Assembly (NCBI GenBank): GCA_964505155.1
Contig: CAZDGL010000001.1
Coordinates: 1,286 to 65,285, forward strand
DNA length: 64,000 nucleotides
Source: an uncultured Candidatus Saccharibacteria bacterium
GTDB taxonomy: Bacteria > Patescibacteriota > Minisyncoccia > Phycocordibacterales > UBA9973
Direction: 5' to 3'
Shown: positions 21,218 through 50,784 of the stretch, in pieces
Layout: every line of letters begins with the position of its first letter
Numbering within the stretch: position 1 is the first letter of the stretch
The notes under the pieces: model-generated
The model's database searches: none
What the model was told of the DNA's origin: nothing
What the model saw: only the letters and a program-made list of their open reading frames with translations
Position numbers and translations under genes: made by a program

Positions 21218-21296
21218 TATAGGAGTCCTAGATACATTGATAGAAAGAATACGAACACCAAAAATGCTGAATAGATGGAAATAGCAATAACATACT

Positions 21297-22270: not shown

Positions 22271-22442
22271 TCTTCCAAATCCTTCAATCGATATAGTTCT
22301 TCAGCGATTTGATCAGGAATACACGAATATCGGATCCACCGAAGCGGTCCAGTTTCCAGTTTACATTCTGGTCGATCACACATTCCATTGCCAGTCCGCT
22401 TCATGCAAAACTGGTCAAGCCAATCAATCATTTGATCAAAAT

Positions 22443-22883
22443 TTACCACCACCAATGGATCCAGATTTGTTCGTCGTCACCGATACCCTGCTCGCGCAGA
22501 TATTGCACGATAGCATCCACCATCAATGGACCTTCTTCCCACTTATGGGTTTCATCATTCCATCGATCAACTGTGGTACCTTCTTCTACAGTGTCTAGAA
22601 GATTGTTGATTGACGTCTTGAAAATATAGTTGTCGTTTCCAAGCTCACATAATCTCCAAATATCCTGAACTTGAGTTTCTACCTCAACCGGACAATCGGA
22701 CCACTGGGCATCCAGAATATACTGCTTTCGGACAGCTTTGCGATGATTAGGTTCTAGTGGCTTTGACTGCCAATCATCAAACTTGTGATTATATGAGGAT
22801 GTTCTTCCAGACCATTCAACCATTATGATTCTCCAAAAAGTACTTGAGATCTTCTGGGGTTCCAGTTCCCCACATACCCTCAA
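22443..22883 (-). CDS. hypothetical protein
   Basis: 146 aa ORF. Confidence 0.35.
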   Translation of the reverse strand: MRVCGELEPQKISSTFWRIIMVEWSGRTSSYNHKFDDWQSKPLEPNHRKAVRKQYILDAQWSDCPVEVETQVQDIWRLCELGNDNYIFKTSINNLLDTVEEGTTVDRWNDETHKWEEGPLMVDAIVQYLREQGIGDDEQIWIHWWW

Positions 22884-24186: not shown

Positions 24187-24371
24187 TTCTTATAGTCTTT
24201 TCTACCCTGTATCTTGTGTGCTTCATCTTTTGTAGGGACTCGATCCCACACGGATCGTTTTAGATACCCTGCTCCATCACACTCGTCACATTCCTTGTCC
24301 CCATAGAAATCCATTCCAAAGGGACCATAGTCTGCAACCTTACCATATCCATCACAATTCGGGCATCTCAT
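24183..24371 (-). CDS. small DnaJ-type zinc-finger protein
   Basis: CPNCDGYGKV and CDECDGAGYL (CxxCxGxG repeats), 62 aa. Confidence 0.4.
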   Translation of the reverse strand: MRCPNCDGYGKVADYGPFGMDFYGDKECDECDGAGYLKRSVWDRVPTKDEAHKIQGRKDYKK

Positions 24372-24498
24372 TTATCATTCCACCACCAATAGGTTTTATA
24401 GATACTCATTATCAACCCAAAGGCAAATAATGCACCGATAGTACCACCTACAATAACACCTAAAAATATTTGAAAATATATGAATATCTCGGCAAGCA

Positions 24499-24801
24499 TT
24501 ATTTGCCGTAATTTCTCACGTATTCCTTGGCTTTCTCCTTGGAAACGTATTCACCATCCCAATCGAGATAGATCGTCACGGCATCGATCACATCAATCAG
24601 TTCACAAATTGCTTCTTTCTGCTCAGGAGTATCATGCTGAGCCATTGCGCTCATTGACACTGGAGCACTAAAATACTTCTCCAGAGCAGCTTTGCTAGCT
24701 TCAGTCGTGATATTCCACGACTTCAGAGTACCCCATTTCAGACCCAGACTTTCAGTTCCCATTTTCTCACCTATAGCTGTTCCATGTTGAAAAATCATCA
24801 C
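24499..24801 (-). CDS. hypothetical protein
   Basis: 100 aa ORF. Confidence 0.3.
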   Translation of the reverse strand: MMIFQHGTAIGEKMGTESLGLKWGTLKSWNITTEASKAALEKYFSAPVSMSAMAQHDTPEQKEAICELIDVIDAVTIYLDWDGEYVSKEKAKEYVRNYGK

Positions 24802-25492
24802 GAAGGATTGCGTGCCAGTTTCCGTTGTACTTACCCGGTGGAAATGGATTGCACATGTCCACGTACACCATATTCACACCTACCAGATTGGACATGTATA
24901 GCTGATTACTCAGCATGTCCTCACCGTTCATTGTCATTCCGAAGGAATAGAAATAGTCGATATTCGTAAACGTATTAGAGTAGCAATCCATGACATTCGG
25001 ACGACCGTACGCGAACATATCCGAACAAAAGTCGTGTGCTGGTGTCATGCGATCCTGAGGCACGTATAGCGTATGGTTCTCTATGGAGTCAAGTTCTAAT
25101 TCTCGATTCAAAGCATAATCAAACCGGGAACGAACGACTACATCATACTCCACACCCTTGCGCAGAGTATGCAGTTTTCGTAGCTGGTTGGCTTCAAATA
25201 CCGAATACCACATGGAATAGGTATTGAATGCCGGGAATTGGGGATTAGCTACCTTGGTATACTTTGAATTGATGTAGGTAGCATTGAGAGACGTATCTAG
25301 TTTAAGACCAGTTGGCTTATATAGAGTCTCAATATCATATAGGAAAGAATCTTTCCAAGTATGAATAAAGACGTCTACGTCATGTTTATCAAGCAAGTTC
25401 TTCTTGTGATATTCATAACCCGCAACATAGCTTCTAGGTTGTCCTGATAGACAGAGAGCTATCTTAAGTTCTTTTTTTGGTGAATCTGTCAA
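24767..25492 (-). CDS. putative glycosyltransferase-like protein (paralog of 21297..22040)
   Basis: Shared N-terminal KIALxLxGxxR block and similar length. Confidence 0.3.
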   Translation of the reverse strand: MTDSPKKELKIALCLSGQPRSYVAGYEYHKKNLLDKHDVDVFIHTWKDSFLYDIETLYKPTGLKLDTSLNATYINSKYTKVANPQFPAFNTYSMWYSVFEANQLRKLHTLRKGVEYDVVVRSRFDYALNRELELDSIENHTLYVPQDRMTPAHDFCSDMFAYGRPNVMDCYSNTFTNIDYFYSFGMTMNGEDMLSNQLYMSNLVGVNMVYVDMCNPFPPGKYNGNWHAILRDDFSTWNSYR

Positions 25493-25688
25493 GGTTTACC
25501 GTCCTATGTGATTTTCGTTCATACACTACTTCATCCTCAAGAATATCTAAATGCTCTTCTAGTATCCGCATCACTTCATCTATAGGATAGACGTCCTGAC
25601 ATCTATTTATAGCGTGTTCCAGAAAGATTAATGCTTGAGTCTGTTCGTAGTATTCTTTGGAATCTCGTTCAATCTGCTTTAGCGACAT
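25464..25688 (-). CDS. hypothetical protein
   Basis: 74 aa ORF. Confidence 0.3.
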   Translation of the reverse strand: MSLKQIERDSKEYYEQTQALIFLEHAINRCQDVYPIDEVMRILEEHLDILEDEVVYERKSHRTVNLDRFTKKRT

Positions 25689-26563
25689 TGTGGAATTACA
25701 CTTCTTTCAAACCAGTTTAGGAATCTCTTTCGAGTCGTCTCCACAATATTCTCATCATCTAGTAGACTTGTACCGCGTATCTTATCGTATAGATCGTCGC
25801 GAGTATCCAGATACTTGATAAATTCTACCACCTCATCGAATGAATCGTAATCATGGCAATTGATGAAGGCATCCGTATTGAAGTCAACCGCAACGGTAGG
25901 GGATCCCCAATAGATAGGTACCGACAATCCGATATAGGCATCCAGAATTTTTTCGGAAACATAACCCGGATAGCTTGAGTTTTCAAAACATATGGTGTAC
26001 TTGTAATTGGATAGGAACCGAATCTTCTGACGGACACCGTCCTCACCGCGAGGGAGAACCCAACCATTCATGTTGTTTAAGTGTGGTCCAGCAGAGTCTA
26101 CCGGACGATACGCGTTCAACTTATGAAAGATCTCGTTGCGTTCTTTGCAGTGTGGATTAGCTACCACGAACGCTGCAAAACGATCATTGTTTCCCCAGAT
26201 ATCTGGCTTACGGTAATCTACGGCATCGTCGTATGAATCGTCTACCAGAATTCCCATCTTATGATAGTGCCATATATTGAGAATATAGAGTGGCAGACGG
26301 AACATGTTCGGATGGATGTTGTGCTCAAACGACAACGCGAAATTACACTTGTAATCCCATGGACGCTGGTTCTCACCTGTATAAAATACCTTCACGCATT
26401 TATCATATTTTGCGTGCTGGTTCTTGTACCCGAAATTGGTATCACCAAAGAACAGGATGTCTGGTTCGATATCATCACGAACGACATCAAAGCGTCCACT
26501 CAACCATTCCATGAAGAATGTGGGAACCGGATCAAAGGTGTCTACGAATCCAATCTTAATCAT
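25679..26563 (-). CDS. GT10-family alpha-1,3-fucosyltransferase-like glycosyltransferase
   Basis: YKYTICFENSSYPGYVSEKILDAY matches the FucT signature (Y/F)x(L/I)xFENSxxxxYxTEK. Confidence 0.75.
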   Translation of the reverse strand: MIKIGFVDTFDPVPTFFMEWLSGRFDVVRDDIEPDILFFGDTNFGYKNQHAKYDKCVKVFYTGENQRPWDYKCNFALSFEHNIHPNMFRLPLYILNIWHYHKMGILVDDSYDDAVDYRKPDIWGNNDRFAAFVVANPHCKERNEIFHKLNAYRPVDSAGPHLNNMNGWVLPRGEDGVRQKIRFLSNYKYTICFENSSYPGYVSEKILDAYIGLSVPIYWGSPTVAVDFNTDAFINCHDYDSFDEVVEFIKYLDTRDDLYDKIRGTSLLDDENIVETTRKRFLNWFERSVIPQCR

Positions 26564-26814
26564 CCGTCAAAATCCATTTCTATCTTCAAACCATCACCAA
26601 TCTTGACAGTTCTTCTGCTCATTCCGACATTCAAAGCTCTAGAGATTTCACGTCCATTGAAACCCATCTCTTCCATAACCTTACGAACGGTTGAAGGACA
26701 AACAGGTTGCTTCATAAAATCTACAAACTGATAGAGTCTAGTGTGAGCTAATTCCTCACGTTCAGATATAGGCACAGATAATATCTCCCGGCACCTGACC
26801 GTCCAAAAACTCAA
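26560..26814 (-). CDS. small HTH DNA-binding protein
   Basis: GFNGREISRALNVGMSRRTV resembles sigma-70 region 4 / LuxR-type HTH. Confidence 0.4.
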   Translation of the reverse strand: MSFWTVRCREILSVPISEREELAHTRLYQFVDFMKQPVCPSTVRKVMEEMGFNGREISRALNVGMSRRTVKIGDGLKIEMDFDG

Positions 26815-27916
26815 ACTTATACTCTGGATTGATTTCGGTCAGAAGGCTCATCGCATCAGAATACTGGACATACGACCATTCAGCAGATCCGAATAGACGC
26901 TTGTCATCAATAATGATGGTATGATCGTTTCGCTTGGAAGCCTTGATTGCTTTCAGTTCGTCAAGCAACGGAGAACCACCGGAACGTCCACCTTTCAGAG
27001 GACCAGACGCATGAGCGTCCAACCAAAAAGTAGCACGGAGATTGTCGTTGTCAAGAGTATCAACGACTTCAGGGAACCAGTCTGCGGAATCGCGTTCTGT
27101 GATGATAATTCGCTTATCGTCTGAAAACTTCTGCTTCGCATTGGTCACCATTCCCTCATTGATATCACAGGACCATATCTCTCGGAACGGAAGTGGCTGC
27201 ATCAATTCAATGGTTTCACCGAGATAGGTTCCGGTCTCCACAAAGACATCATGCAATCCGTACTTTCGTACATCATCAGGATTTAGATGCGATCCATTCT
27301 TCTTAGGCTTCATTATGAAAGGAGTCAACGCTGGACCAGACTTTTCTACCGAATTGCTCTTCTTCCACCAGAATCCACCTGCACCAGTCACCACCATCGG
27401 ATCCGTGAACCGCATCTCACGACGAAACTGCTTTACCTCATCAATCCTACGATGATATGACTGTCCGGCAAAGATGCCTCCCACGCGACAAATCTCGAAG
27501 GCTTCGGAGATTGGTGTGTCCCCAGAAAATATAACAACATCAAATTTAATGTTTCCCAGATTCTCCACAGAATATGGGCAAATCACATGTTCCATGGACT
27601 TGACGTTATTGTGATACTGTGAATACCACTCGGACTTTGGATTATTATAATAGAATGAAACCCTCTCACCCAAGGCATCATGCAGATTTCGGAGCATTTC
27701 ACCCTTGTGATCCTCGATATAGATCGTGAGCTTATCACCCAGACGTCGAATTTCTGGAATCAAATCGACGGTAAGCAGCGTGAGATTGTTGACAAACTTG
27801 CGCTCCTTCAATTCGTCGTAGGATAGATCCATATTCATATAATTGACTGGACCTTCCACTACTGGAATATCCACCACAACTTCTTCCTCGTCATCATTCT
27901 TCAAATCAATGCTCAT
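26762..27916 (-). CDS. putative SAM-dependent methyltransferase (two Rossmann-like halves)
   Basis: VFVETGTYLGETIE...SCDIN (motif I/II-like) and ...FDVVIFSGD...ICRVGGIFAGQ. Confidence 0.4.
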   Translation of the reverse strand: MSIDLKNDDEEEVVVDIPVVEGPVNYMNMDLSYDELKERKFVNNLTLLTVDLIPEIRRLGDKLTIYIEDHKGEMLRNLHDALGERVSFYYNNPKSEWYSQYHNNVKSMEHVICPYSVENLGNIKFDVVIFSGDTPISEAFEICRVGGIFAGQSYHRRIDEVKQFRREMRFTDPMVVTGAGGFWWKKSNSVEKSGPALTPFIMKPKKNGSHLNPDDVRKYGLHDVFVETGTYLGETIELMQPLPFREIWSCDINEGMVTNAKQKFSDDKRIIITERDSADWFPEVVDTLDNDNLRATFWLDAHASGPLKGGRSGGSPLLDELKAIKASKRNDHTIIIDDKRLFGSAEWSYVQYSDAMSLLTEINPEYKFEFLDGQVPGDIICAYI

Positions 27917-28782
27917 CCGATTGCGTACCTTTCGTCAACTAATGCTTTCAATTCTGGATTTCTATCATACTGGTGGACAATATAGAATGGCTCACCGTAG
28001 ACGTTTCTAATTGTTCCATCGGAATCCATCTCAATTCCGTTATCGGTTCGAACCTTGGAGAAATCCTTGGACGGATCCATCATGGTTCCAATCTGTGCTG
28101 CCCACGAATGATCATGGTCAAATATCATGGCATTATGTGGATTCAGGGTACGAACCAGCACATTCAAAGCAGACTGATCCGGACCACCTCCACCGGGAAC
28201 AAACGCTGGACGACCCACGCACATTTGGTAGATCGCTAGACTCAAAGCCTTTATGCTCTTATGTGTTCCAGCTAGAACACCAGCATTGAGGATAGGATGA
28301 TCTAGCATATAATGCAATGTGTCATTTCCGAACGACAGCTTCATGTTATTATAAGACCACGGCTCATCCTTATAGGCTATTCCTTCTGAAGAAAAGATTA
28401 GGATATTTGATCCGTTATCATAAAAATGATCCAGATCAATTTCATTGATGAAAAAATCAGACGGATTTCTCTGAAAAATCACATCCCGAACATCGGTTGT
28501 GATAACGTAACGATATTCCAATTCATCGGAAGCTTTAAGAATTAGATGAAGATCTCTGAATCGATCGACGCAGATATTTTGGGAAGGAGAAAATGGAGCA
28601 GGATTTGGATAGTAGTATCGATCACCATTCTGAGTGCAGAAGTTCCACATCTCATCGGATGGTGTATAATCAAACAGTACGATAGAACCCTTATATCCAG
28701 TTGATTTTAGAGAGAACACCCAATTGTGAACGTGGTGTGGTTGATAGTTTTTGATAAACCCAATTACGAGGTCTTCTTCCAT
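27913..28782 (-). CDS. hypothetical protein (island member)
   Basis: 289 aa ORF, start overlapping the upstream stop. Confidence 0.3.
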   Translation of the reverse strand: MEEDLVIGFIKNYQPHHVHNWVFSLKSTGYKGSIVLFDYTPSDEMWNFCTQNGDRYYYPNPAPFSPSQNICVDRFRDLHLILKASDELEYRYVITTDVRDVIFQRNPSDFFINEIDLDHFYDNGSNILIFSSEGIAYKDEPWSYNNMKLSFGNDTLHYMLDHPILNAGVLAGTHKSIKALSLAIYQMCVGRPAFVPGGGGPDQSALNVLVRTLNPHNAMIFDHDHSWAAQIGTMMDPSKDFSKVRTDNGIEMDSDGTIRNVYGEPFYIVHQYDRNPELKALVDERYAIG

Positions 28783-29513
28783 GGCAATTCTCCATTATAA
28801 AAGTCAAGAGTTTTTTGATTGCCGTCCTCAAAAAACTTCTGGTTAACCGAACCCGGATTTCCGTCCAGACGATACCGAACAGTATACCCACACATAGTTA
28901 TCGGACTTAGTCCAGACCATTTTTGAACTAGCTGAAGAAATCTTCGATCTCCACCCCATCCTGAATTCCATAGATGTCCATATCGTTTAAGGAATTCATT
29001 CTTGAAAATAAAGCATGAGGTATCGACTAGATATCCGTTAAGCTCATTGAACATAATAGGCCAATTGCCTAGAGACTCGCAATCGTCGTCCAGAAGGTAT
29101 TCGTTTTTGGGAGATACGATTTTACGGAAAGAATGACCGAAATGGTCGTCTTGTTCTGTGATAGCTTCGACCATTGACCGAACATGATCTGGTTCGTAGA
29201 GATTGTCCTCATCCAGAAATAGAATGTAATCTTCTGGGACAATCTGGGACATTGCGGCATAGATCCGATGTCCATAATAACCGTTGGCACCTGTATTGAA
29301 TGGTAATTCAATAATGCTTACGTTGCGATAATCCGAACAGGTATCCCGAACGTTGACGTCTCGCTGGATACCATCAATCACCACATAATGAGTTAGCTTC
29401 CCCTTGTAATCCTGATTGAATACAGATTCAACAGCATCACAAAGTTTATCGGTGCCGATTGTAGGAGTGACGACACCGACTGTAGGAGGTTCTTTAACTA
29501 TAGAGTATTTCAT
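28764..29513 (-). CDS. GT2-family glycosyltransferase
   Basis: VVTPTIGTDKLCDAVESVFNQDY...YVVIDG and DxD-like ILFLDEDN. Confidence 0.7.
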   Translation of the reverse strand: MKYSIVKEPPTVGVVTPTIGTDKLCDAVESVFNQDYKGKLTHYVVIDGIQRDVNVRDTCSDYRNVSIIELPFNTGANGYYGHRIYAAMSQIVPEDYILFLDEDNLYEPDHVRSMVEAITEQDDHFGHSFRKIVSPKNEYLLDDDCESLGNWPIMFNELNGYLVDTSCFIFKNEFLKRYGHLWNSGWGGDRRFLQLVQKWSGLSPITMCGYTVRYRLDGNPGSVNQKFFEDGNQKTLDFYNGELPWKKTS

Positions 29514-33567: not shown

Positions 33568-33780
33568 TCAATCAACAATTTCCCAATCGTCTGAAAGTAT
33601 ATCAGCTTGATTAGCTAACCAACCCGGTTGATATTTACCTTGAGCAGTAAACATTACTATATAAGGTTCGTACTTTTCGTACTCAGTTTCTAAATATAGA
33701 TACATGTTTTTGCCGTTCCATCCAGAACGTCTAACAAAATTTCCATTTTTTAGTTCTTCAATTGCTTGTCCAAAATTCAT
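33568..33780 (-). CDS. hypothetical protein
   Basis: 70 aa; its ATG overlaps the HNH stop (ATGA). Confidence 0.35.
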   Translation of the reverse strand: MNFGQAIEELKNGNFVRRSGWNGKNMYLYLETEYEKYEPYIVMFTAQGKYQPGWLANQADILSDDWEIVD

Positions 33781-34349
33781 TTAAACTCCAACTCTGCCAT
33801 CAATTCGGTTAGACATGCAGCATCAACATGTCCATATTTAATTCTGTTTTCTTTCCACTCTAACATTTGTAAATTATCCTTACTAGCAAGTATTTCAGGT
33901 TGAATAGAATTATTCCATCCATATATAATAGAGATTTTATGATCTAATTGATATCCACCTTCTACACCAGATAATGTTCTAGGATAATTATTAGGATTAA
34001 TTTCATTCATATGTTTAATATATGTTCGTTCTGTCAACACTCTTACTTTTGATAGATAGCTTTTAAATTTACGATTTCTTCTATCTGGATTATAAGATGG
34101 ATGGTTTGAGCCACTTCTATTTTTACCATACCAAGGATTATTTTCACCTTTCCATCTATCTGAAGATATATAATTACCTTGTCGTTTTTGTCCAGTTTGA
34201 GATTTCTGGTATTTTGCTATACTATCATGAGAATCTGCAGTTAATCCTTTATTCCAAGGAGATTTTCCAGTATTATCTGGAAGTATACCTCTAGCAACTC
34301 TTTTTTTAGCAGATTCCGACATTTTGCGTCGGGTTTCGTCTGAAATCAT
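33777..34349 (-). CDS. HNH-family homing endonuclease with N-terminal NUMOD3 repeat; the last 14 codons duplicate the gp44 C-terminus
   Basis: SDETRRKMSESAKKR (NUMOD3); C-terminal LDHKISIIYGWNN...NLQML (HNH-like); ends ...AACLTELMAELEFK, as does gp44. Confidence 0.7.
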   Translation of the reverse strand: MISDETRRKMSESAKKRVARGILPDNTGKSPWNKGLTADSHDSIAKYQKSQTGQKRQGNYISSDRWKGENNPWYGKNRSGSNHPSYNPDRRNRKFKSYLSKVRVLTERTYIKHMNEINPNNYPRTLSGVEGGYQLDHKISIIYGWNNSIQPEILASKDNLQMLEWKENRIKYGHVDAACLTELMAELEFK

Positions 34350-36492: not shown

Positions 36493-36747
36493 TCACGCAA
36501 TTTCCTGAATAATGAAACGAGTGTTCTTGTTAGCCACACCACTCCAATCATATTCCGATGGTAGATCACTCACTGCTACATCAAACCATGTATCAATCTT
36601 TGGATCACGTCTCTGTTCAATCAATCTTGCTCTGGTACCCGATGGGACATAAGCATTAATAGTCACTGGCATTGTCTTACCCTTTCTTGTTAATAAATGC
36701 TGGAACAGGGTTAGGATACTTTTCAATAATTTCCTTAGCCTTGGCAT
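36493..36747 (-). CDS. hypothetical protein
   Basis: 84 aa ORF. Confidence 0.3.
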   Translation of the reverse strand: MPRLRKLLKSILTLFQHLLTRKGKTMPVTINAYVPSGTRARLIEQRRDPKIDTWFDVAVSDLPSEYDWSGVANKNTRFIIQEIA

Positions 36748-37507
36748 TCAATTCTTCCATCCATCCATCCCGAACTGCTGGTGGTCTGTCGTCTACCCAA
36801 TTTTCACGAATCATGGAATCCCTAAGCACCGTCAGGGACGCAATAGCTTTTGTGATATGGGAAAGTCCTGAAGCAGGATCGATATCCTGTCCTTCATACC
36901 AATCAGTCAAATGACGCAAGGTTGCATCGTAGTAAACGGAGCCGAGGACACCTACTTCACGGTAATTGTGCCGACCGTACTTGCGAGCACCTTCCATCAT
37001 AGCTAGGCCAACCTCGGCCCACACTACCGCTGACACGGTCGAGAACGGAACCTTGGCAATACCTACCGAATCTTTTGGATTAGACGGTTTGGTATTATGC
37101 GTGATTACCACATCGTTTGGAAAGGTGTCAAGGATAAAATCCTCATCACGTGGCATAATTACGTCACCAGATTTTACCCACGGAGACGGACCACATAACT
37201 GAGCAGAATCAACCGATGCCCATGGTGAACGTAGTAGAGAAGAATCTACTGATGGATAGAAATACTCTTGAGAAGGTAATGGACCAACTGCATCAACAAT
37301 AGGTTCTATATACTTAAGATCACCTTCCCAGATCACTGGTTTATCTGGATCCCACGCATCAATAAATTCATCAACGTCAGTCTTGTCTTCCCATCCGAAC
37401 TTGGATCCCACTTGAGTTTTTGGAATCTGGGTAGTCGGATGAATTTCAGGAAGTACTAATTCACTATGCTTTGTAGTCCAAGGATCATAAGCTTCATCAT
37501 TTCTCAT
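36677..37507 (-). CDS. hypothetical protein
   Basis: 276 aa ORF. Confidence 0.4.
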   Translation of the reverse strand: MRNDEAYDPWTTKHSELVLPEIHPTTQIPKTQVGSKFGWEDKTDVDEFIDAWDPDKPVIWEGDLKYIEPIVDAVGPLPSQEYFYPSVDSSLLRSPWASVDSAQLCGPSPWVKSGDVIMPRDEDFILDTFPNDVVITHNTKPSNPKDSVGIAKVPFSTVSAVVWAEVGLAMMEGARKYGRHNYREVGVLGSVYYDATLRHLTDWYEGQDIDPASGLSHITKAIASLTVLRDSMIRENWVDDRPPAVRDGWMEELNAKAKEIIEKYPNPVPAFINKKG

Positions 37508-39330: not shown

Positions 39331-39356
39331 AGGAGCCGAAAGGCTCCTTAATTCTT
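39331..39356 (+). terminator. rho-independent terminator (GNRA tetraloop hairpin)
   Basis: AGGAGCC-GAAA-GGCTCCT then TAATTCTT; near-identical to the hairpin at 40726. Confidence 0.6.
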
Positions 39357-39403
39357 GGTGCGGACTAGCGGTAACGATCCGCTTTCTACTCGTTGGCAAC
39401 GAG

Positions 39404-40060
39404 TCATAATTCCTTTATACGAAGCCCGCTAAATTTTCGACCTTTATACCAACCTTCTGGTATCTGGTCAAGTTTATTTATCTTTCGGTTCCTAGTTCCA
39501 TCAGTTATCCACATAGTTCCGAAAGCAGGATTTTTCTGACCGTTTCTATCAACTTTTTGTTGAGCCTCAGATATTTTTCGTTTAATCTCGTCAGATTGAG
39601 TTTTACCTAGTTGAGAATAAACAAAATTTGATGACGGTATATGTTTGATACCTTTTTCTTTTTTTGCTAAGGCACCTTTAATTCCAAGTTCTCTTAGTTT
39701 TTCTTTTGAAAATTTACCTATAGAACTGTCATATCCTTTACGAACATATTCGTTTTTCAAATTTGACGAATTGATGTATTTAAACCCTCCACCGAACCCA
39801 CCTACACAAATATTGTAGGTGTTTGATAGTCCACACCAATCTTCATCTACTAATTCAGCTTCTTTGAGAAGCATATCTTGTTCGGTATCAAAACGATATA
39901 AGATCTCTTTATTAAAATTTTCACGTCCGTATTTCTTTACGGCATGCTTCAAATGAGTACCAGATCCAAGATATCCATCGTCTAAATTCTTAGTTTGATG
40001 GATGCCTCGATATACTTTATCGTTTAAGAGATTGGTAGTTTGGTAGACGATGTAGTGCAT
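39404..40060 (-). CDS. GIY-YIG homing endonuclease (Seg-like), paralog family member
   Basis: MHYIVYQTTNLLNDKVYRGIHQT...YLGSG; 218 aa. Confidence 0.8.
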   Translation of the reverse strand: MHYIVYQTTNLLNDKVYRGIHQTKNLDDGYLGSGTHLKHAVKKYGRENFNKEILYRFDTEQDMLLKEAELVDEDWCGLSNTYNICVGGFGGGFKYINSSNLKNEYVRKGYDSSIGKFSKEKLRELGIKGALAKKEKGIKHIPSSNFVYSQLGKTQSDEIKRKISEAQQKVDRNGQKNPAFGTMWITDGTRNRKINKLDQIPEGWYKGRKFSGLRIKEL

Positions 40061-40065
40061 TTAAG

Positions 40066-40110
40066 GGAGTCCTGATTACCGTTTACTATTATTTAGGTAA
40101 TCAGGACTCC
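40066..40110 (-). promoter_or_regulatory. 15-bp-stem hairpin with conserved CTAAATAATAGTAAAC loop upstream of the GIY-YIG gene
   Basis: ggagtcctgattacc / ggtaatcaggactcc; the SD AGGA lies in the 3' stem 10 nt from the ATG. Confidence 0.6.
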
Positions 40111-40115
40111 AAGGG

Positions 40116-40190
40116 AGCGTCCAGTCGGATTCGAACCGACACTTACTGGTTGGAAGCCAGTCGTGCTTAGCCGTTAAACACTATAGAAGC
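40116..40190 (-). tRNA. tRNA-Gly (anticodon UCC)
   Basis: Anticodon stem ACTGG/CCAGT, loop CTTCCAA, T-arm GTCGG-TTCGAAT-CCGAC, discriminator U; acceptor with one U.C mismatch; CCA not encoded. Confidence 0.65.
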
Positions 40191-40277
40191 ATATGGCCGC
40201 TGTGCTGCATTACACCATAGGGCATCAGGAAAATTGGCTGCCCCACCCAGAATTGAACTAGATCCTGCGACAAGGAT

Positions 40278-40307
40278 ATTTATATGCATTTTATCACGTG
40301 GTGTCAA
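40278..40307 (-). promoter_or_regulatory. sigma70-type promoter TTGACA-N17-TATAAAT (minus strand) upstream of tRNA-Gly
   Basis: Minus-strand TTGACAccacgtgataaaatgcaTATAAAT; transcription would run through a roughly 90 nt structured leader into tRNA-Gly. Confidence 0.55.
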
Positions 40308-40353
40308 CAAAAAAGAATCTTTCAAAGATTTTTCTTTAAGCCGAAGAATCCCG

Positions 40354-40382
40354 TTGACAAATTCAGAGAAATACGCGATATT
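40354..40382 (+). promoter_or_regulatory. sigma70-type promoter TTGACA-N17-GATATT
   Basis: -35 at 40354..40359; weaker -10. Confidence 0.45.
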
Positions 40383-40428
40383 CAGATTATAGAAATTGAG
40401 CCGAAACAAACAACCGAAGGAGACTAAC

Positions 40429-40716
40429 ATGACTGCTACCGCTACGAAGCTTGGTCGCAAGGACGCTCTCACCAGCAAGGTGAAGGCCCACTACCTCACC
40501 AACCTCGACACCCTGACCAACCGCTACTACGCTGGTCGCTTGATGGACGAGGGTTTCATTTCGCAGGAGAATGTCCCTACCGGAAAGCAGGGACGTCCCC
40601 CGGTTCGCTACATCCTGACGGGTAAGGGTAAGGGTTTCCTGAGCCTTGCCTCGAAGTGGAACAAGCAGAAGGACGAGACGGTCATCGAGATTAACCCTTT
40701 CGAGATCAAGCTCTAG
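40429..40716 (+). CDS. GC-rich small basic protein with a GKQGRPP AT-hook-like motif
   Basis: ATG at 40429 with an AAGGAG SD; 95 aa; GC about 57% versus a genome around 40%; TGKQGRPPVRYILTGKGKG resembles the H-NS/Lsr2-type Q/RGR DNA-binding loop. Confidence 0.5.
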   Translation: MTATATKLGRKDALTSKVKAHYLTNLDTLTNRYYAGRLMDEGFISQENVPTGKQGRPPVRYILTGKGKGFLSLASKWNKQKDETVIEINPFEIKL

Positions 40717-40725
40717 AACGGAAGA

Positions 40726-40750
40726 GGGAGCCGAAAGGCTCCCTTTTTAC
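40726..40750 (+). terminator. rho-independent terminator
   Basis: GGGAGCC-GAAA-GGCTCCC followed by TTTTTAC. Confidence 0.7.
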
Positions 40751-40935
40751 TTTGCATACTCAATCAAGAACTGAGTAGGATTGAGTCCTGCATTTCTGAG
40801 ATAGGATTCCGCATCCTGAGGGTTTCGGAATTCCAGAAGCTTGGTTGCTCCAGACTCAGTATACTCCGACATGCTCTGGAGATATTGTCTTCCTTCAATA
40901 CTGAAAATTACGTACATTAGCGTTTCCTTATTCAA
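40747..40935 (-). CDS. hypothetical protein
   Basis: 62 aa ORF. Confidence 0.3.
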   Translation of the reverse strand: MNKETLMYVIFSIEGRQYLQSMSEYTESGATKLLEFRNPQDAESYLRNAGLNPTQFLIEYAK

Positions 40936-41701
40936 AGTCTAGCTGCTCAACGAGTCGCTCGTTAGCCTTGGTGAAGTATTCAGGATCTGCCTCGATACAA
41001 ACCCATTTGCGGTTCGTCTGTCGGGCAGCTACTGCCGTTGTTCCGGCTCCTGCAGTATTATCTAGGATAACTTCACCTTCGTTGCTGTAGGTTCGAATGA
41101 GATACGCGAACAAATCTACTGGCTTCTGAGTAGGATGAAACCCACTCGAATTAGAATCGAAGCGCAGGATTGAATCGGGATAGCCTTCGTATTCTGGTGT
41201 ATAATCCCTATGCGATGGTCTGGTGCCGATATGGCCACCATACTTGCGGGTTCCGTCCTGAACCTTAGGTCGCAATATTTTCTTCAACCCTTGAGGATTA
41301 TATGTCATTCTGGACGATGTCAAGTGCTCATGATTGGTCGTTGCCTTGGAAAATATGAGCACATTCTCATGTTTCTTCAGAGGCTTATTCTTTGCATGAA
41401 CAAATCCTGTGGGCTTGGTCTTCTCCCAGATCAATTCGTATTTGAAGTATTCAATCTGGGAAACGATGCACGCTGTGGTGAATGGTTGAGACGCAGTCAT
41501 AACCACCGTTCCCGTAGGCTTCAGGAGCCTCCAGTATTCATCCCATAGCTGATTAAATGGAAGAACCGAATCCCATCCACATTCCGTGGTTCCGTATGGC
41601 AAATCGACCAGCACCATATCAATCGAACCGGATGCTAGCTGTGGCATCACGTCGAAGCAATCACCCTGATAGAAAGTGCCATCGGGATATTCCTGTTTCA
41701 T
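40928..41701 (-). CDS. DNA methyltransferase, beta-class amino-MTase (CcrM/HinfI-like N6-adenine type)
   Basis: Motif IV VDLPYGTT precedes motif I DNTAGAGTTAVAA; paralog of 43946..44692; ATGA overlap with the gene 46 stop. Confidence 0.75.
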   Translation of the reverse strand: MKQEYPDGTFYQGDCFDVMPQLASGSIDMVLVDLPYGTTECGWDSVLPFNQLWDEYWRLLKPTGTVVMTASQPFTTACIVSQIEYFKYELIWEKTKPTGFVHAKNKPLKKHENVLIFSKATTNHEHLTSSRMTYNPQGLKKILRPKVQDGTRKYGGHIGTRPSHRDYTPEYEGYPDSILRFDSNSSGFHPTQKPVDLFAYLIRTYSNEGEVILDNTAGAGTTAVAARQTNRKWVCIEADPEYFTKANERLVEQLDFE

Positions 41702-43410
41702 TCGGATCCTTTGATAAACGAATAGTTCTTCTCTTTGATAAATTCAATCACTCTATCAAACTTGGACTGAAGCTGTGGTTTGTGGGAAATAATGATCGTG
41801 TTGGTCTCAGGCAGAAGTTTCTGGATTTGTTCAAACTCGTCCATTCCTTCCTCGTCCATGGAGGAATCCATAACCTCGTCCAAGATCAGGAGATTGGTAT
41901 TGATCGAATTCTTCTGCTTGGCAATATCCCTGAAAGCCCACAGAATGGCAAAATCAATTCGCATGGTCTCACCTGCGGACAGGGAGCCATAGCTGATTTC
42001 ATTGTATCCGAACTTGATGGATTCCTTGAAGGTCTCGTCCAGTTTGAATTCGATATCCATTCCCATTTGAGTGATGTATTTGTTGATTTTTTTGTTCAGG
42101 ATTGGAATGTACTTCTTGATGATTTTGGCCTTGATCCCGGTATCCTTGAGAAGCTCAATTGAGGTCTCTAGATCTTCCTTAGTAATAGAAAGAAGATTCT
42201 TTTTCTGCTTGACAAGAACCAGAGCATCCTTAGAATCTTGGAGACGCTCCTCAGTATCACGCTGTAGATCATCAGTTTTAGAAAGCTTGAGAATGTCATT
42301 GGATAGACGCTTTCGTTCGGACTTCTTTGAATCAATGGTGATCTTCAGCTTGGATATCTCGGCATTATAGCGTGCGACATCCTTCGTTAGTCTTTCAAGC
42401 TCCTCGATATCCTGATCGAGCTTCTTTAGCTCTTGCTCCACTTTGGTGATATTGTCAATCTGATTTTCAATAATTCCATCCAGATTGGATATGATGCTCT
42501 GAGAATGGTCGTGCGATATTCCCTGCAGACACGTTGGACACTTGACATTTTCCGTAAAGAAGCTTCTATCTTCTTTGTTTGTGGTAAGCTTCGTATTCAG
42601 CTTAACTCGAACGTCTTTCAATGCTGACCGTCTGGATGGTGCCTTCGTGTATTTCTCAATTTCCTCGGATAGAACCTCAACAAATCCCTTCAGTTCGATT
42701 TCTCGATCCACGGACGCGATGATAGTCGTATCGATTACCTCGATCTGCTTCTTCAGATCCTCGATCTTATCCTCGTTGTTGGATTGAATAGAGTCAATAG
42801 TCTTTTCCAGATACGAAATACGTTCTACCAGATTATCGTATTCATTGGAATTCTTGACAATATCTTCCTTCAGATCCACAAGTCTCTTCTTAGCAATCAC
42901 ATTCATGATTGAAAAGATACGGATATCCAGCAGATCTTCTACTACAATACGACGTTCTGCTGGTGTTAATTCTAGTAGAGGCTTATGAAGTTTGGCAGAT
43001 ACAATATTGATCTGCTTGAATCCCTTATACGAAGACTTCAGAATCGTCTTTTCTAGAATCTCCTGATAGTCTAGAGTAGAAGCTTCCTTGTTTAAAATCT
43101 CTCCATCGCATATGATATCAAATACTGCAGGCTTAAGTCCGCGTCTAATCATGTAGGACTTGCCTAGAGTATCAAATTCTACTTCAACTAGACAATCCTT
43201 CTTGTTGGTCCAGCTAACCAAATCCGGTTTGTTGATATTTCTATACGGCTTTCCATACAACGCAAAAGTCACGGCATCCATCACTGTGGATTTGCCGTGA
43301 CCGTTTTTACCAATGAACAAAGTATTCCGGTGAGAATCGAGTCTCACTTCGGTCATGACGTTGCCAGTACTTAAAAAGTTCTTCCAGCGAATTACTTTAA
43401 TCTTCAGCAT
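41698..43410 (-). CDS. 46: recombination endonuclease subunit gp46 (Rad50/SbcC-like ATPase)
   Basis: Walker A GKNGHGKST, coiled-coil middle, CPTC zinc hook, C-terminal LILDEVMDS (Walker B); 570 aa. Confidence 0.85.
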   Translation of the reverse strand: MLKIKVIRWKNFLSTGNVMTEVRLDSHRNTLFIGKNGHGKSTVMDAVTFALYGKPYRNINKPDLVSWTNKKDCLVEVEFDTLGKSYMIRRGLKPAVFDIICDGEILNKEASTLDYQEILEKTILKSSYKGFKQINIVSAKLHKPLLELTPAERRIVVEDLLDIRIFSIMNVIAKKRLVDLKEDIVKNSNEYDNLVERISYLEKTIDSIQSNNEDKIEDLKKQIEVIDTTIIASVDREIELKGFVEVLSEEIEKYTKAPSRRSALKDVRVKLNTKLTTNKEDRSFFTENVKCPTCLQGISHDHSQSIISNLDGIIENQIDNITKVEQELKKLDQDIEELERLTKDVARYNAEISKLKITIDSKKSERKRLSNDILKLSKTDDLQRDTEERLQDSKDALVLVKQKKNLLSITKEDLETSIELLKDTGIKAKIIKKYIPILNKKINKYITQMGMDIEFKLDETFKESIKFGYNEISYGSLSAGETMRIDFAILWAFRDIAKQKNSINTNLLILDEVMDSSMDEEGMDEFEQIQKLLPETNTIIISHKPQLQSKFDRVIEFIKEKNYSFIKGSE

Positions 43411-43867
43411 GTGATTTTATATACTCTATAGTTCTTTCCAATATTGTCACATCCTCTTTAGAATGTCCAATCATTGTATTGCAATTCACACACAATAATT
43501 TTCTAATTTTTCCAGTATTGTGATTATGATCTACACCTAATGATAATCCATTTTGCGGTGGATTAGAACAAATGAAGCACAAATTGTTTTGCTTTTCTAC
43601 CATTTCTTCGTATTCATCTATTGAAATACCAAATAAATGACGAAGTTTATAGTTCTTTCTTCCTCGAAAACCAAGTTTATCATGTCTTACTTTTCGAGTA
43701 TTCTGTCTTTCTTCTATGGAAAGAGAATGATATTCATTTTTACTCTTTTGAATTTCACACGCTTTACATTTAGGCTTATAAATGAATTCTACCTTTTTAC
43801 CTTTTCGCTGAACATAAAACTCCGAAACTGGTTTAGTAAGCTTACATTTAGTACAGGTTTTTTCCAT
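43397..43867 (-). CDS. HNH endonuclease
   Basis: VDHNHNTGKIRKLLCVNCNTMIGH; CTAAATA plus a hairpin upstream. Confidence 0.75.
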   Translation of the reverse strand: MEKTCTKCKLTKPVSEFYVQRKGKKVEFIYKPKCKACEIQKSKNEYHSLSIEERQNTRKVRHDKLGFRGRKNYKLRHLFGISIDEYEEMVEKQNNLCFICSNPPQNGLSLGVDHNHNTGKIRKLLCVNCNTMIGHSKEDVTILERTIEYIKSHAED

Positions 43868-43945
43868 TCAATACTCCTAGTGGAAATGTTTCTAAGAGTA
43901 TTTAGTTTTTCCATTCTTCCAGCGTACAGTCTTTATTTTCAACAA

Positions 43946-44692
43946 TTAATCAAATTCCAGATAGAGATCAAGCTTGTCGACTGCCTGATTATAATACTTC
44001 GGATCCATTTCCATACAGATCCACTTCCGATTTGTCTGCCGAGCAGCAAATGCCGTTGTACCAGATCCTGCGGTATTGTCCAGCACCAATTCACCCTCAT
44101 TCGTGTAGGTTCGAATGAGATATGCAAACAAATCGATAGGCTTCTGGGTAGGATGCTCCGTATCCGTCACTGATGTAAATTCCAGAACCGAATGCGGATA
44201 GTTGGTGTATTCCTGAATGAATTCTTCACCCGGTTTGATACCCATCTTTCCGTAGTTTGGAGTCTGGTTCTTTCCACCAATGCAGACCTTATTGATCTTC
44301 TTCACACCCTGAGGATTGTAAGTGGGCAGATTTTTGTAGAAAATCAGGACGTTTTCGTGTGATTTCATCGGCATCTTCTTAGCATTCAAGAAGCCGGTCT
44401 TTCGGGATTTGTACCAGATCCATTCATACTTCAGATATTGGATCTGGGACATACCGAGAGTCTTGTCAAATGGTGTCTGTGCGGTAAGCACAATCACACC
44501 ATTTGGCTTCAGGACTCTCCAATACGCTGGCCACAATTCCTCGTATGGAATGATGTTATCCCATGGGTTCTCGGTCGTGCCGTATGGAAGATCCGCTAGA
44601 ATCATATCCACCGATCCCTCAGGAAGCAGTGGGAATACTTTCAAGCAATCATCATTATAGAATGTGCCGTCAGGGAATTCCTTCTTAATCAT
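43946..44692 (-). CDS. DNA methyltransferase, beta-class (CcrM-like), paralog of 40928..41701
   Basis: ADLPYGTT ... DNTAGSGTTAFAA; about 55-60% identical to the other copy over conserved blocks. Confidence 0.75.
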   Translation of the reverse strand: MIKKEFPDGTFYNDDCLKVFPLLPEGSVDMILADLPYGTTENPWDNIIPYEELWPAYWRVLKPNGVIVLTAQTPFDKTLGMSQIQYLKYEWIWYKSRKTGFLNAKKMPMKSHENVLIFYKNLPTYNPQGVKKINKVCIGGKNQTPNYGKMGIKPGEEFIQEYTNYPHSVLEFTSVTDTEHPTQKPIDLFAYLIRTYTNEGELVLDNTAGSGTTAFAARQTNRKWICMEMDPKYYNQAVDKLDLYLEFD

Positions 44693-45047
44693 TATGTTGT
44701 GGAACTTCTCTATATACAGTCACAGGAATTTCATTGAAAGTGACCACAGGTTCCAATATGTAAGGAACACCATTCTTGAACCTATATCCCCAAATTTCTC
44801 CTCTATTATCACCTTCTGCAGACATGAATACGACATCACCATTGACGGAAGGATCATTCAAGGCATCAAGTGCCCAATCTTCCCACAAAAAGTCCTTATG
44901 CTCCATAGCATCGTAGTCGAATTCAAGTCCATACGTTTCGGAATAGCTGATGCTCTGATAGTTTTCTTGAGCAGCTTCAACAAGCTTATCAGCTACGTCC
45001 ATGGACATCTTAAGTGTATTTGTTTTAATTCCAATATTCCAACCCAT
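44685..45047 (-). CDS. hypothetical protein
   Basis: 120 aa ORF. Confidence 0.35.
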   Translation of the reverse strand: MGWNIGIKTNTLKMSMDVADKLVEAAQENYQSISYSETYGLEFDYDAMEHKDFLWEDWALDALNDPSVNGDVVFMSAEGDNRGEIWGYRFKNGVPYILEPVVTFNEIPVTVYREVPQHND

Positions 45048-46140
45048 TCACTCTCCTATTTTTTCAAGTTCTAATGCTTCTCTGTAAATAGAATCCATGA
45101 CACGAATTACCGCGTCCGATCTATTTCCTAAATTCATTCCTTTGATATGTGTAGTTATGTGCTTCGAAGTAGTATCGTTTTCAACAGCTACTACCTCTTC
45201 ATCACCTTCTACTACCACATCTTCCGTCAAATCATCGAATGTCAGCTTCAGAGGCTTAGATGCTTTGATTGCGTCTACCAATGAATTGTAGAGATACGGA
45301 TTTTGCTTGTTCTTTATTATCAATTGGACATAGACATCATTGTAGGATATCCGTCCATCCCGAATTCCCTTGACATCATCGAAGATCCGTTCTTCGGACT
45401 CCTGATTCAAATCATCGTAGACGTATCTACGGAAAACATTAAACGGATTTTCAACAAATTGTAGATCACTAGGATAATCCGTGTCCATGATATGAAAACC
45501 GCGTGGAGTGCCAAAATCTGCCCACGTATAGGCTCCTGTGGCTCCCAGATAGGTTATCGAACCGGACGACGATGGTGTGTGAAAATGGCCAGAAAGCGTC
45601 AAATCAAACTTCTTGAATTTCGCTGGATCCAGACCGTGCTCACACGACAATCCTGAATCCATTTTGAATCCATTGATTTCAAGATGGCCGAAACACATAG
45701 TAGAATGAGTCTCGGCCATCTTCTGCATGGACGCATGATAATTCTCTTCGTTAATCCAAGGCAACAAGAAAGTCTGTATACCACCGACCAAAATATCCTG
45801 TGCTTCGGTGTATATCTTTGCTTCCTTGTGCAGGAGTAACTCTAGAGCATTTAGAGCATTCGTATCCTTGTAGTATACGTCGTGATTCCCGGTTATGATT
45901 GAAAAATCAAATTCCTCAATCGGCTCCAGAAAGTGTGAGTATAGCACCTGCAAAGTCCGAAAGTCAATGTATTTTCGTGAGTCGACCAGATCACCCAAAT
46001 GCCAAACAGAAGAGATACCTTCTTCCTTTAGCTTTGGGAAGAAGGTTCTTCTGAAGAATTTTTCGGATGCTAGGTGAAAAGCTGTGTTATCGTTTCGGAT
46101 CCCAAAAGTGAGTGTCAGTTAGAATAGCAATTTTAGCCAT
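45048..46140 (-). CDS. 47: recombination nuclease subunit gp47 (Mre11/SbcD-like), interrupted by a +1 frameshift at the T4 run 46104..46107
   Basis: Main frame carries motifs II-V (WHLGDLVD, GNHD, GHLE, GHFH). A 17-codon frame from an ATG at 46138 with an AAGGAG SD encodes motif I (LTDTHF) in the +1 frame. Confidence 0.7.
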
Positions 46141-46333
46141 TTACCGACTCTCCTTTCATATTTTGTGTTGATTTATACAAAAGTGTATGTCCCTTGTGTT
46201 GTTTGTTTTTTCCTCTAGAAACTTGAATCACGTTCTAGTATATGCAGTTCTTTCATTCACTGATTCCTTCTTAGGTAGTGCTCTATCAATATAGTCTCTA
46301 ACATCCCGCAATCGCTTTACTAGGACTCCGTAC

Positions 46334-46969
46334 TCATTCGAATTCTTGCTCAAAGAATTCAGCTTCGTTACCAAATCCTGAATCATCACTGGGATCAACA
46401 TCTCTTGGTTCTTCATTACTTACTCCAACTTCTTCCATCTTCAGTTTTTTCTTGGCCTTACGCTCAGTGCGTCTACGCTCCATTTTCTTCTCAAACTTGT
46501 GGATGAATTCATTCAGGTTATCATAAGTCCCATCTTGATTCAAGGAAATGTTTTCCTCTTTTAGATGTTCTTCCAGATCCCAATTATCCACCACGTGATT
46601 GTGATAAGATTTGTACTTGATATAGGAAGTCTTTTCCTCCTCTTCAATTCTTCTCAGGAATGCGTACCACGAAATCGTGGTGAAGTATGCATGAGGGTTC
46701 TTATACTTTTCGATATCGAAATTATCGAAGTAGAGAATGCAGTTCTCGACCGCATCCGACTCCATTTCTTCCTTGAAAGAATAACCTATAAACTTACGAT
46801 TGTAGGTTAGACCCTTGGCAATCTTCAGGATGCATAGGCCACAGAAATCCGGTATTCGTGGTTTAGGATCGTCCTGATCCTCGGCTTCCCGAACCTTGGC
46901 CTTGTATTTCTTGATACTCTCTAGGAACTTTTCGTTATCAACGTAGTAGTTCTTTGGCAATTTTGACAT
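46334..46969 (-). CDS. 55: late-transcription sigma factor gp55
   Basis: KYKNPHAYFTTISWYAF collinear with T4 gp55 KYKNPHAYITQACFNAF. Confidence 0.8.
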   Translation of the reverse strand: MSKLPKNYYVDNEKFLESIKKYKAKVREAEDQDDPKPRIPDFCGLCILKIAKGLTYNRKFIGYSFKEEMESDAVENCILYFDNFDIEKYKNPHAYFTTISWYAFLRRIEEEEKTSYIKYKSYHNHVVDNWDLEEHLKEENISLNQDGTYDNLNEFIHKFEKKMERRRTERKAKKKLKMEEVGVSNEEPRDVDPSDDSGFGNEAEFFEQEFE

Positions 46970-50232: not shown

Positions 50233-50784
50233 TTATTTACAAAGATAAGATATTGCTCTCTTCAAGTATTCTACATTATCTTTAAAATGTCCTAATCCAT
50301 GATTACAATTCTGACATAATAATCCACGAAATCTACCCGTTTCATGACAATGATCAATTGATAATTCTTGTGATGATGGTGAATTACAATCACAAATCGA
50401 ACAAGTTTGTTGAACTTCTAATAAATGAAGAATATATTCTTCATTTTCAACTAATCCTAAAGATCTAATTTTTCGTTTTCTTAAAATAATTTTCTGTTTC
50501 TCTGGGTTATCTTGTTCCCATTTTCTTCTATGATATTCACGACGTTGTTTTTGTTCTTCAGTGGCATTAGCATTACGATATCGTTGGTTTGCAGCTTCAC
50601 ATTCACGACACGTGGATCTTGGTCGTGGAATTTTTCTAGTTCTAATTCTAAAATCATCAACAGGTTTTTTTGTCAAACATTTGACGCAAGTTTTTGTAGT
50701 TTCATTGTATCCGTAGTTACATGAACGACATTTTAGGGAGCGGGAATCTTTTAGGTTCCCACACCCACACAAATCTTTTGGCAT
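50233..50784 (-). CDS. HNH endonuclease
   Basis: IDHCHETGRFRGLLCQNCNHGLGH; CTAAATA at 50816..50822 plus a hairpin upstream. Confidence 0.75.
   Translation of the reverse strand: MPKDLCGCGNLKDSRSLKCRSCNYGYNETTKTCVKCLTKKPVDDFRIRTRKIPRPRSTCRECEAANQRYRNANATEEQKQRREYHRRKWEQDNPEKQKIILRKRKIRSLGLVENEEYILHLLEVQQTCSICDCNSPSSQELSIDHCHETGRFRGLLCQNCNHGLGHFKDNVEYLKRAISYLCK

Follow-up and report, generated by a model that had tools for sequence, protein, structure and literature searches.

Solitary (orphan) DNA methyltransferases of phages are usually explained by anti-restriction. Among homing endonucleases, the DHHRN (Endo VII-motif) family was founded on F-CphI of cyanophage S-PM2, an enzyme characterised by experiment, and is defined by D, H, H, R and N residues together with flanking CX2-4C and CX2C zinc ligands (PMC6083498). 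The motif is N-terminal in the resolvase clade of this family and C-terminal in the endonuclease clade, which holds F-CphI, intron-encoded enzymes and R.Hpy99I (PMC6083498). One-sided illegitimate repair of a double-strand break is documented for intron acquisition in T4 (PMC2988022). Here we describe a locus with genes of both kinds in a 64,000-nt stretch of contig CAZDGL010000001.1 (the window; all coordinates are positions within it). Two methyltransferases, MT1 and MT2, bracket gene 46 (gp46) of a T4-like phage, and a nuclease open reading frame (ORF) lies between MT2 and gp46. The account that we hold to be likely is that MT1 and MT2 are orphan beta-class methylases co-expressed with gp47 and gp46, and that the nuclease is a homing endonuclease that came to the locus independently.

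The nuclease cassette at the MT2-gp46 junction

The genes of the block are all on the minus strand, in the transcription order gp47, ORF120, MT2, nuclease ORF, gp46, MT1 and a 62-aa ORF (ORF62). MT2 (43946-44692, 248 aa) and MT1 (40928-41701, 257 aa) flanked gp46 (41698-43410, 570 aa), as the preliminary description of this DNA had stated; both were intact, and they were 53% identical to each other. gp46 was recognised as a Rad50/SbcC-like recombination ATPase by AAA_23, SMC_N and AAA_29 matches and by ~40% identity to cyanophage (cyanomyovirus) gp46. The nuclease ORF (43397-43867, 156 aa) is adjacent to MT2 (MT2 stop at 43946, nuclease start at 43867) and was found, as described, to overlap the gp46 start, by 14 nt (ATGCTGAAGATTAA). 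The ATGA shared by the gp46 stop and the MT1 start, a 4-nt overlap, is literally present. Overlaps of 8 nt join the ORF120 stop to the MT2 start (ATGATTAA) and MT1 to ORF62 (TTGAATAA; 40747-40935), which lies downstream of it. No minus-strand terminator-like site was found in 40000-46500, and promoter and terminator scans gave no signal above shuffles. From the gene overlaps and the lack of a minus-strand terminator-like site we infer that the block from gp47 to MT1 is co-transcribed and largely translationally coupled.

Orthologs of MT2 were found in two Logan contigs, L004 (SRR22000166; MT2 at 19-765) and L005 (SRR22000211), in which MT2 is joined directly to gp46. The blastn matches of both contigs covered window positions 44693-43914 and resumed at 43392, and the segment 43393-43913 is missing from them, as the junction sequences also show. 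Directly after the MT2 stop the window reads TTGTTGAAAATAAAGACTGTACGCTGGAAGAA (R1, 43914-43944, minus strand; LLKIKTVRWKN with a TTG start), which opens a mere 17-codon ORF. The real gp46 start lies 535 bp downstream of R1, at the downstream edge of the cassette, and reads ATGCTGAAGATTAAAGTAATTCGCTGGAAGAA (R2, 43379-43409, minus strand; gp46 codons 1-11, MLKIKVIRWKN). A repeat search returned R1 and R2 as a 31-nt imperfect direct repeat with 71% identity and 535-bp spacing. R1 stands at the exact position of the gp46 start in L004 and L005 and has the same TTG start; in a manual base count against the L004 allele, R1 matched at 24/32 positions (75%) and R2 at 20/32 (62.5%). The present ATG start of gp46 is inside the 3′ end of the nuclease cassette. 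Flanking repeats were also looked for around the other homing-endonuclease genes of the window, and none were found.

The preliminary description had called the nuclease an HNH endonuclease. A nuclease and a selfish element it does appear to be, and only the HNH label has to be given up: the protein matched PF02945 Endonuclease_7 (E 6e-22, 77.7 bits, cut-off 23.6) over residues 75-151 of 156. The DHHRN signature is complete (D113, H114, H116, R122 and N130, with zinc ligands C97, C100, C126 and C129), and it is preceded by an N-terminal CxxC...CxxC zinc ribbon (C5, C8, C34 and C37). Residues 3-153 aligned to residues 10-141 of F-CphI with 34% identity (E 3e-27). The best PDB match was R.Hpy99I (3FC3, E 1.4e-8), zinc-ribbon region included, and T4 Endo VII was not recovered in this search at E <= 0.01. 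The composition of the gene is foreign, with a GC content of 0.30 and a GC content at third codon positions (GC3) of 0.20, as compared with 0.43-0.50 in the backbone. An intron-associated endonuclease was considered and rejected; no group I intron was found at the nuclease locus, Rfam yielding only tRNAs. On these sequence features the predicted protein has the architecture of the endonuclease clade and is a free-standing homing endonuclease of the F-CphI type, that is, a selfish element.

We propose that gp46 suffered a double-strand break near codon 11, and that the repair template was a donor with the endonuclease gene just upstream of its own gp46. The junction on the gp46 side would be a homologous one, and the opposite junction would be illegitimate. 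Such repair would leave R1 as the decayed remnant of the old gp46 5′ end, and the element would supply the new gp46 start (R2), now translationally coupled to the endonuclease. On the best reading of these junctions the cassette was inserted later than the methylases and independently of MT2, and the adjacency of MT2 and nuclease would be incidental.

Other genes of homing-endonuclease type occur in the window. A second DHHRN/Endo VII-motif ORF (50233-50784, minus strand, 183 aa) is 32% identical to the nuclease beside MT2; its best PDB match is likewise Hpy99I, its GC3 is 0.15, and it lies upstream of UvsY-UvsW with no flanking repeat. GIY-YIG/NUMOD3 ORFs are at 39404-40060 (minus), 9445-10080 (minus), 6086-6703 (plus), ~6763-6951 (minus), 12487-13131 (plus) and 33777-34349 (minus), one of them a fragment. 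They are AT-rich (GC3 0.26-0.28), and several are interspersed with the tRNA genes, of which there are 12; the one at 39404-40060 has a tRNA-Gly gene on each side and shares 26 nt with tRNA-Gly(GCC) (39356-39429). In other phages, Endo VII-motif ORFs are situated immediately upstream of gp47 in S-SRM01 (L012, 3935-4390) and RHph_I1_18 (L013, 3866-4408), which suggests that the recombination module may be a recurrent landing place for Endo VII-motif elements.

Two orphan methyltransferases of different subfamilies

MT1 and MT2 both matched PF01555 (N6_N4_Mtase) over profile positions 1-220 of 221, MT1 with E 1.9e-26 and 93.8 bits and MT2 with E 6.4e-26 and 92.1 bits (cut-off 26.7); MT1 also matched PHROG 67 (E 5e-70). 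The beta-class motif order described earlier was borne out, motif IV, reading DLPY (MT1 residues 33-36), standing before motif I, AG[AS]GTT (~217-222). The conserved blocks quoted with it are all present in both proteins, the first in the form [YF]PDGTFY. The 239-member alignment of the methylase family has 67 columns with a conservation of 90% or more, of which MT1 retained 62 and MT2 63, including D-L-P-Y, HPTQKP and GSGTT. Motif IV had D and P in all 239 members and Y in 238, and its second position was L in 87% and P in 13%. The AlphaFold2 (AF2) model of MT1 (pLDDT 91.5) has the beta-class fold, and Foldseek placed CcrM, M.MboIIA, M.BceJIV, M.RsrI and M1.HpyAVI about equally close to it (19-25% identity, E 1e-15 to 1e-19); the best solved relative by sequence was M.MboIIA. 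Since the fold lies at much the same distance from enzymes that recognise five different motifs, the specificity is not inferable from solved structures. Because of the Asp in motif IV and the N6-adenine enzymes among the nearest structures, both proteins probably modify adenine at N6 (m6A).

The two enzymes had been described as CcrM-like, with mimicry of host GANTC methylation as one suggested role. Against the NCBIfam CcrM equivalog NF050803, MT1 scored 71.3 and MT2 62.6 bits versus a cut-off of 830, and only the C-terminal 65-70 residues matched. The C-terminal extension of CcrM is absent, the Pfam match ending at residue 247 of 257 in MT1 and 238 of 248 in MT2. Caulobacter CcrM (GANTC; PDB 6PBD) has the beta-class fold in common with MT1 (Foldseek E 3.8e-19, TM 0.70) at ~21% identity, with a chain of 366 residues versus 257 and 248 aa; it aligns confidently in the C-terminal AdoMet-binding part only, and the N-terminal stretch is weak. 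With four other enzymes equally near in fold, "CcrM-like" is true of the predicted proteins at fold level only, and a GANTC specificity is unsupported. When the whole window was compared with first-order Markov expectations, CATG was under-represented (239 observed, 302 expected, z -3.5) and GAATTC over-represented (61 observed, 38 expected, z +3.8).

GC3 was 0.50 in MT1 and 0.53 in MT2, the core genes having 0.43-0.50, and this backbone-like codon composition marks the two as long-term residents of the phage. Their nearest homologues are 54-60% identical and occur in unrelated phage-like contigs with no adjacent restriction gene, a context in which MT1 and MT2 fit orphan phage methylases. No restriction-type partner gene was found in the MT-gp46 block, and our literature search turned up no specific account of paired beta-class methylases in a phage. 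The phage of the window encodes gp23, gp20, gp43, gp44, gp62, RegA, gp45, UvsW and UvsY of T4 type, its gp23 being ~63% identical to those of Methylophilales phage Melnitz, Pelagibacter phage Mosig and cyanophage S-SKS1; these features are those of a divergent aquatic T4-like myovirus. The window is part of an NCBI contig of 151,180 bp; a megablast search of 50,697 phage records with the region gave no match, and exact-product look-ups of MT1 and MT2 gave none either. The backbone UvsY-UvsW-x-gp55-...-gp47-(small ORF)-gp46 was found without a methylase in 4/4 relatives, namely cyanophages S-CAM9 and S-SRM01, Rhizobium phage RHph_I1_18 and metagenome contig L007. Judged by these four, MT1 and MT2 are lineage-specific additions at gene boundaries of a conserved gp47-gp46 module. 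Searches for longer relatives (gp46, MT1 and MT2 in IMG/VR; MT2 in metagenome contigs) returned only family members of <=60% identity.

At these boundaries the methylase genes are chained to the gp47-gp46 module by overlapping stop and start codons, so that synthesis of MT1 and MT2 would go along with that of the replication and recombination proteins, and the two enzymes would methylate new phage DNA. They probably modify two different short motifs, which would give wider protection against host restriction, and an anti-restriction role is the probable one for both.

MT2 was 96% identical to its ortholog in amino acids and 85% in nucleotides; in the L004 comparison the synonymous divergence (dS) was ~1.3 and the nonsynonymous divergence (dN) 0.021, a dN/dS of 0.016. 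gp46 was 74% identical to L004 gp46 in amino acids, and the ORF120 tail was more diverged (~55% by a rough count). On this comparison MT2 ranks with the most tightly constrained genes in the block; the purifying selection on it is very strong, which argues that it is functional and matters to the phage. Synonymous divergence from L004 and L005 was similarly deep for MT2 and its neighbours.

The two copies do not stem from a recent duplication. At 53% identity (BLASTP E 2e-102) their synonymous sites are saturated, the proportion of synonymous differences (pS) being 0.78, and for each of them the databases contain many sequences closer than the other copy. The lists of their 120 top homologues had only one protein (P0073) in common, besides the cluster of MT2 orthologs (P0038), which ranks in the MT1 list. 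The full-length neighbour-joining tree was star-like, with MT1 and MT2 as sisters in 5/100 bootstraps; more was to be learned from trees by segment and from a linker indel. The linker between HENVLIF and TYNPQG has 16 residues in MT1 and 105/119 of its nearest relatives, and 6 residues in MT2 and 119/120 of its nearest relatives; this indel places the two sequences in two different, well-populated subfamilies, MT1 in the long-linker and MT2 in the short-linker one. There are 15 rare residues common to MT1 and MT2, more than MT1 has with any other sequence. These shared states, which include E40, A199 and a C-terminal tail found in four sequences only, are concentrated in the terminal thirds. 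Trees of the terminal thirds (121 columns) had the two as sisters in the point estimate and in 48/100 bootstraps, and trees of the central 107 columns (motifs V-VIII plus the target recognition domain, TRD) in 0/100; pS was 0.55-0.67 at the ends and rose to 0.8-1.0 in the middle. This is suggestive, not proof, of ends that were partly homogenised long ago, or of an old duplicate with a replaced centre. The idea of a recent gene conversion between the two copies was rejected, as the most similar stretch (codons 193-232) still had a pS of 0.62. The best reading of the sequences is that MT1 and MT2 were acquired separately or were duplicated very long ago. Since the divergence is strongest in the central/TRD part and the subfamilies differ, two different specificities are plausible.

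Other readings of the locus

Several points weigh against an account with two orphan methylases and an independent homing endonuclease. The polarity of the indel is unsettled, since the L004/L005 lineage may just as well have lost the cassette by a precise deletion, through recombination between R1 and R2. The two contigs are short (2.0 and 1.05 kb) and end before the position of MT1, so that they do not give its age in the lineage. The methylase trees are neighbour-joining trees of samples made up of the top hits of each query, and 48/100 bootstraps is a weak value for ends that are sisters. GANTC was mildly under-represented in the window by the same Markov expectation (306 observed, 389 expected, z -4.7), a value that is listed here and is uninformative. 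Finally, the best solved relative of the nuclease, R.Hpy99I, is a type II restriction enzyme, and in phage KpV2811 (L014, 1519-2956), of a Klebsiella phage group, an Endo VII-motif ORF comes directly after a C-specific methylase.

Of the alternatives, the one that survives best is still unlikely. It holds that the methylases are not mainly anti-restriction enzymes and instead mark phage DNA for processes of the phage itself, possibly as an MT1-MT2 heterodimer; candidate processes are replication or recombination control, packaging, and self/non-self discrimination during host-DNA degradation. The conservation of MT2 above its neighbours (96% aa versus 74% for gp46, with a more diverged ORF120 tail) and the embedding of the genes in, and their translational coupling to, gp47/gp46 are in its favour. 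The concentration of shared rare residues in the terminal thirds would suit marking by a heterodimer, and the dimer is the working form of beta-class enzymes such as CcrM, M.MboIIA and M.BceJIV. Against this, the methylase family was linked to gp46/47 in no relative examined (0/56 loci), and both proteins keep the full catalytic motifs, neither looking like a dead partner.

It is very unlikely that MT2 and the nuclease form a phage-borne pair resembling a restriction-modification (R-M) system, in which the nuclease would cut unmethylated host or competitor DNA and MT2 would protect the phage's own. The preliminary description had noted a resemblance to a selfish R-M-like or methylation-gated unit; variants are a selfish addiction unit and a start of host-DNA breakdown that gp46/47 completes. 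Besides the Hpy99I likeness and the KpV2811 arrangement, the pair would have for it that most such proteins in Helicobacter adjoin a methylase (PMC6083498), and that MT2 and the nuclease lie inside the gp47-gp46 exonuclease operon. L004 and L005, however, keep MT2 joined to gp46 without the nuclease, and MT2 so persists at 96% aa identity with a dN/dS of 0.016. The nuclease is a 535-bp cassette of GC3 0.20 bounded by two copies of the gp46 5′ end, the protein resembles the homing enzyme F-CphI over its full length, and the gene stands in a window rich in homing-endonuclease genes, where the paralogous DHHRN ORF (50233-50784) has no adjoining methylase. In 56 IMG/VR loci (623 kb) with this methylase family, no DHHRN nuclease, gp46 or gp47 was found within 8 kb.

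A further reading, to which we give a slim chance, takes MT1 and MT2 as a co-evolving pair, maybe a heterodimer, whose methylation would be a self mark, so that gp46/47, primed by phage endonucleases, would degrade only DNA of the host or of competitors that lacks the methylation. The terminal thirds would have been kept alike by gene conversion or by a shared interface, with central parts from different subfamilies. The positions around gp46 would reflect a functional link, and the DHHRN enzyme would be among the priming endonucleases.

Slimmer still is the chance that the nuclease serves the phage as its Holliday-junction resolvase, in which case a working gp49/Endo VII would stand beside the recombination genes. 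The Pfam Endonuclease_7 and PHROG "endonuclease VII" matches and the Endo VII-type ORFs that adjoin gp47 in S-SRM01 and RHph_I1_18 agree with a resolvase. However, the catalytic motif is C-terminal, after the zinc ribbon, and not N-terminal as in the resolvase clade (PMC6083498). The PDB search at E <= 0.01 recovered Hpy99I and not T4 Endo VII, and the ORF has a foreign composition and is missing from the close relatives L004 and L005.

A recent duplication of MT1/MT2 within this phage, which the endonuclease would have set off by way of break-induced ectopic repair and which was raised earlier as a duplication mediated by the HNH element, is hardly credible: the 53% identity, the 15 shared rare states with the near-unique C-terminal tail and the 48/100 bootstraps of the terminal thirds are outweighed by synonymous saturation (pS 0.78), by a phylogeny of the two copies with 5/100 over the full length and 0/100 in the central 125 residues, by the diagnostic linker (16 versus 6 residues) that assigns them to different large subfamilies, by flanks that on a reading of translations have no evident similarity, and by a nuclease cassette that is foreign, compositionally much younger than both methylases and missing in relatives that keep MT2-gp46.

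The surrounding genome and comparison with known systems

gp47, an Mre11/SbcD-like protein, is the first gene of the co-oriented block (45048-46140, minus strand, upstream end approximate). It is split by a 1-nt frameshift near 46105 (46087-46140), with MAKIAILTDTHF in one frame and FGIRNDN... in the next, apparently caused by an extra T within the run CACTTTTGGG. A sequencing error in the homopolymer could explain it, as could a true pseudogene or a +1 slip on U-UUU. ORF120 (44685-45047, minus strand), a small conserved protein between gp47 and MT2, has a homologous C-terminus upstream of MT2 in L005 (L005:1-96). Its family is unannotated and comprises ~110-aa proteins in 149 clusters at 50% identity, and longer members are fused to BRCT (5), WGR (2) or ATP-dependent ligase domains. 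ORF120 is probably a DNA-repair accessory or uncharacterised repair module rather than a methylase partner. The idea that it is the ancestral small gp47-gp46 ORF of cyanophages was rejected, there being no similarity to the S-CAM9 or S-SRM01 ORFs.

Elsewhere in the window, a 276-aa ORF (36677-37507, minus strand) has a PF18909 dATP/dGTP diphosphohydrolase N-terminal domain (E 9e-22) with PHROG 2252 and 801 matches. The domain is known from MazZ/DatZ-type enzymes that modified-base phages encode; none of the window ORFs that were scanned resembled PurZ. A cluster of sugar-nucleotide and glycosyltransferase genes (17973-29513, minus strand) includes an NAD-dependent epimerase/dehydratase, a UDP-glucose/GDP-mannose dehydrogenase, a HAD and nucleotidyltransferase fusion, a GT10 fucosyltransferase-like gene and a GT2 gene; either the host surface or the DNA of the phage may be what these enzymes act on.

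The region illustrates cleanly how T4-type genomes in nature acquire accessory genes where core genes meet: the conserved gp47-gp46 module would first have taken in two methylases of different subfamilies, and a homing endonuclease after them. The insertion of the endonuclease gene within the first 11 codons of an essential-type gene would have been tolerated because it brought a replacement start along, and it would have left a dated "scar". The MT2-gp46 junction of the L004 type is a concrete candidate target for a second characterised member of the DHHRN family. All this is ordinary phage genome mosaicism and leaves current understanding unchanged, while correcting the over-readings of GANTC methylation by CcrM, HNH-driven duplication and an R-M unit.

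Among solitary phage methylases of the PF01555/PHROG 67 type, gp10 of Burkholderia phage Bcep781 is 50% identical to the enzymes described here. It has ~250 aa, the same motif order, the D-[LP]-P-Y motif IV, HPTQKP and GSGTT in common with them. Two or three copies of such orphans are also carried by several phages and viral contigs; unlike those examined, the two copies of the window bracket gp46 and are translationally coupled to gp47/gp46. With R.Hpy99I/M.Hpy99I the locus has in common a related nuclease and an adjoining methylase gene. The partner of Hpy99I is a C5-cytosine methylase, of another family, and the methylase and nuclease of the window do not co-occur in relatives.

The insertion itself resembles the seg and mob endonuclease genes of T4, which are likewise AT-rich genes between conserved T4-type genes and variably present among relatives, with junctions at microhomology documented for ectopic acquisition (PMC2988022). 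The arrangement of the window ORF at 39404-40060 resembles that of T4 segB in the tRNA region. The T4 enzymes are GIY-YIG or HNH and the nuclease beside MT2 is DHHRN; unlike the T4 cases, its gene was inserted, on our reading, inside the first 11 codons of the target gene, which a carried-in start would have rescued. The nuclease is like F-CphI over its full length and has with it the D, H, R and N spacing, the zinc ligands and the N-terminal ribbon in common; both are free-standing genes of T4-like marine-type myoviruses. F-CphI, however, adjoins the psbA group I intron and cuts psbA, whereas the nuclease of the window is intron-less, lies at the MT2-gp46 junction and is flanked by the duplicated gp46 5′ end.

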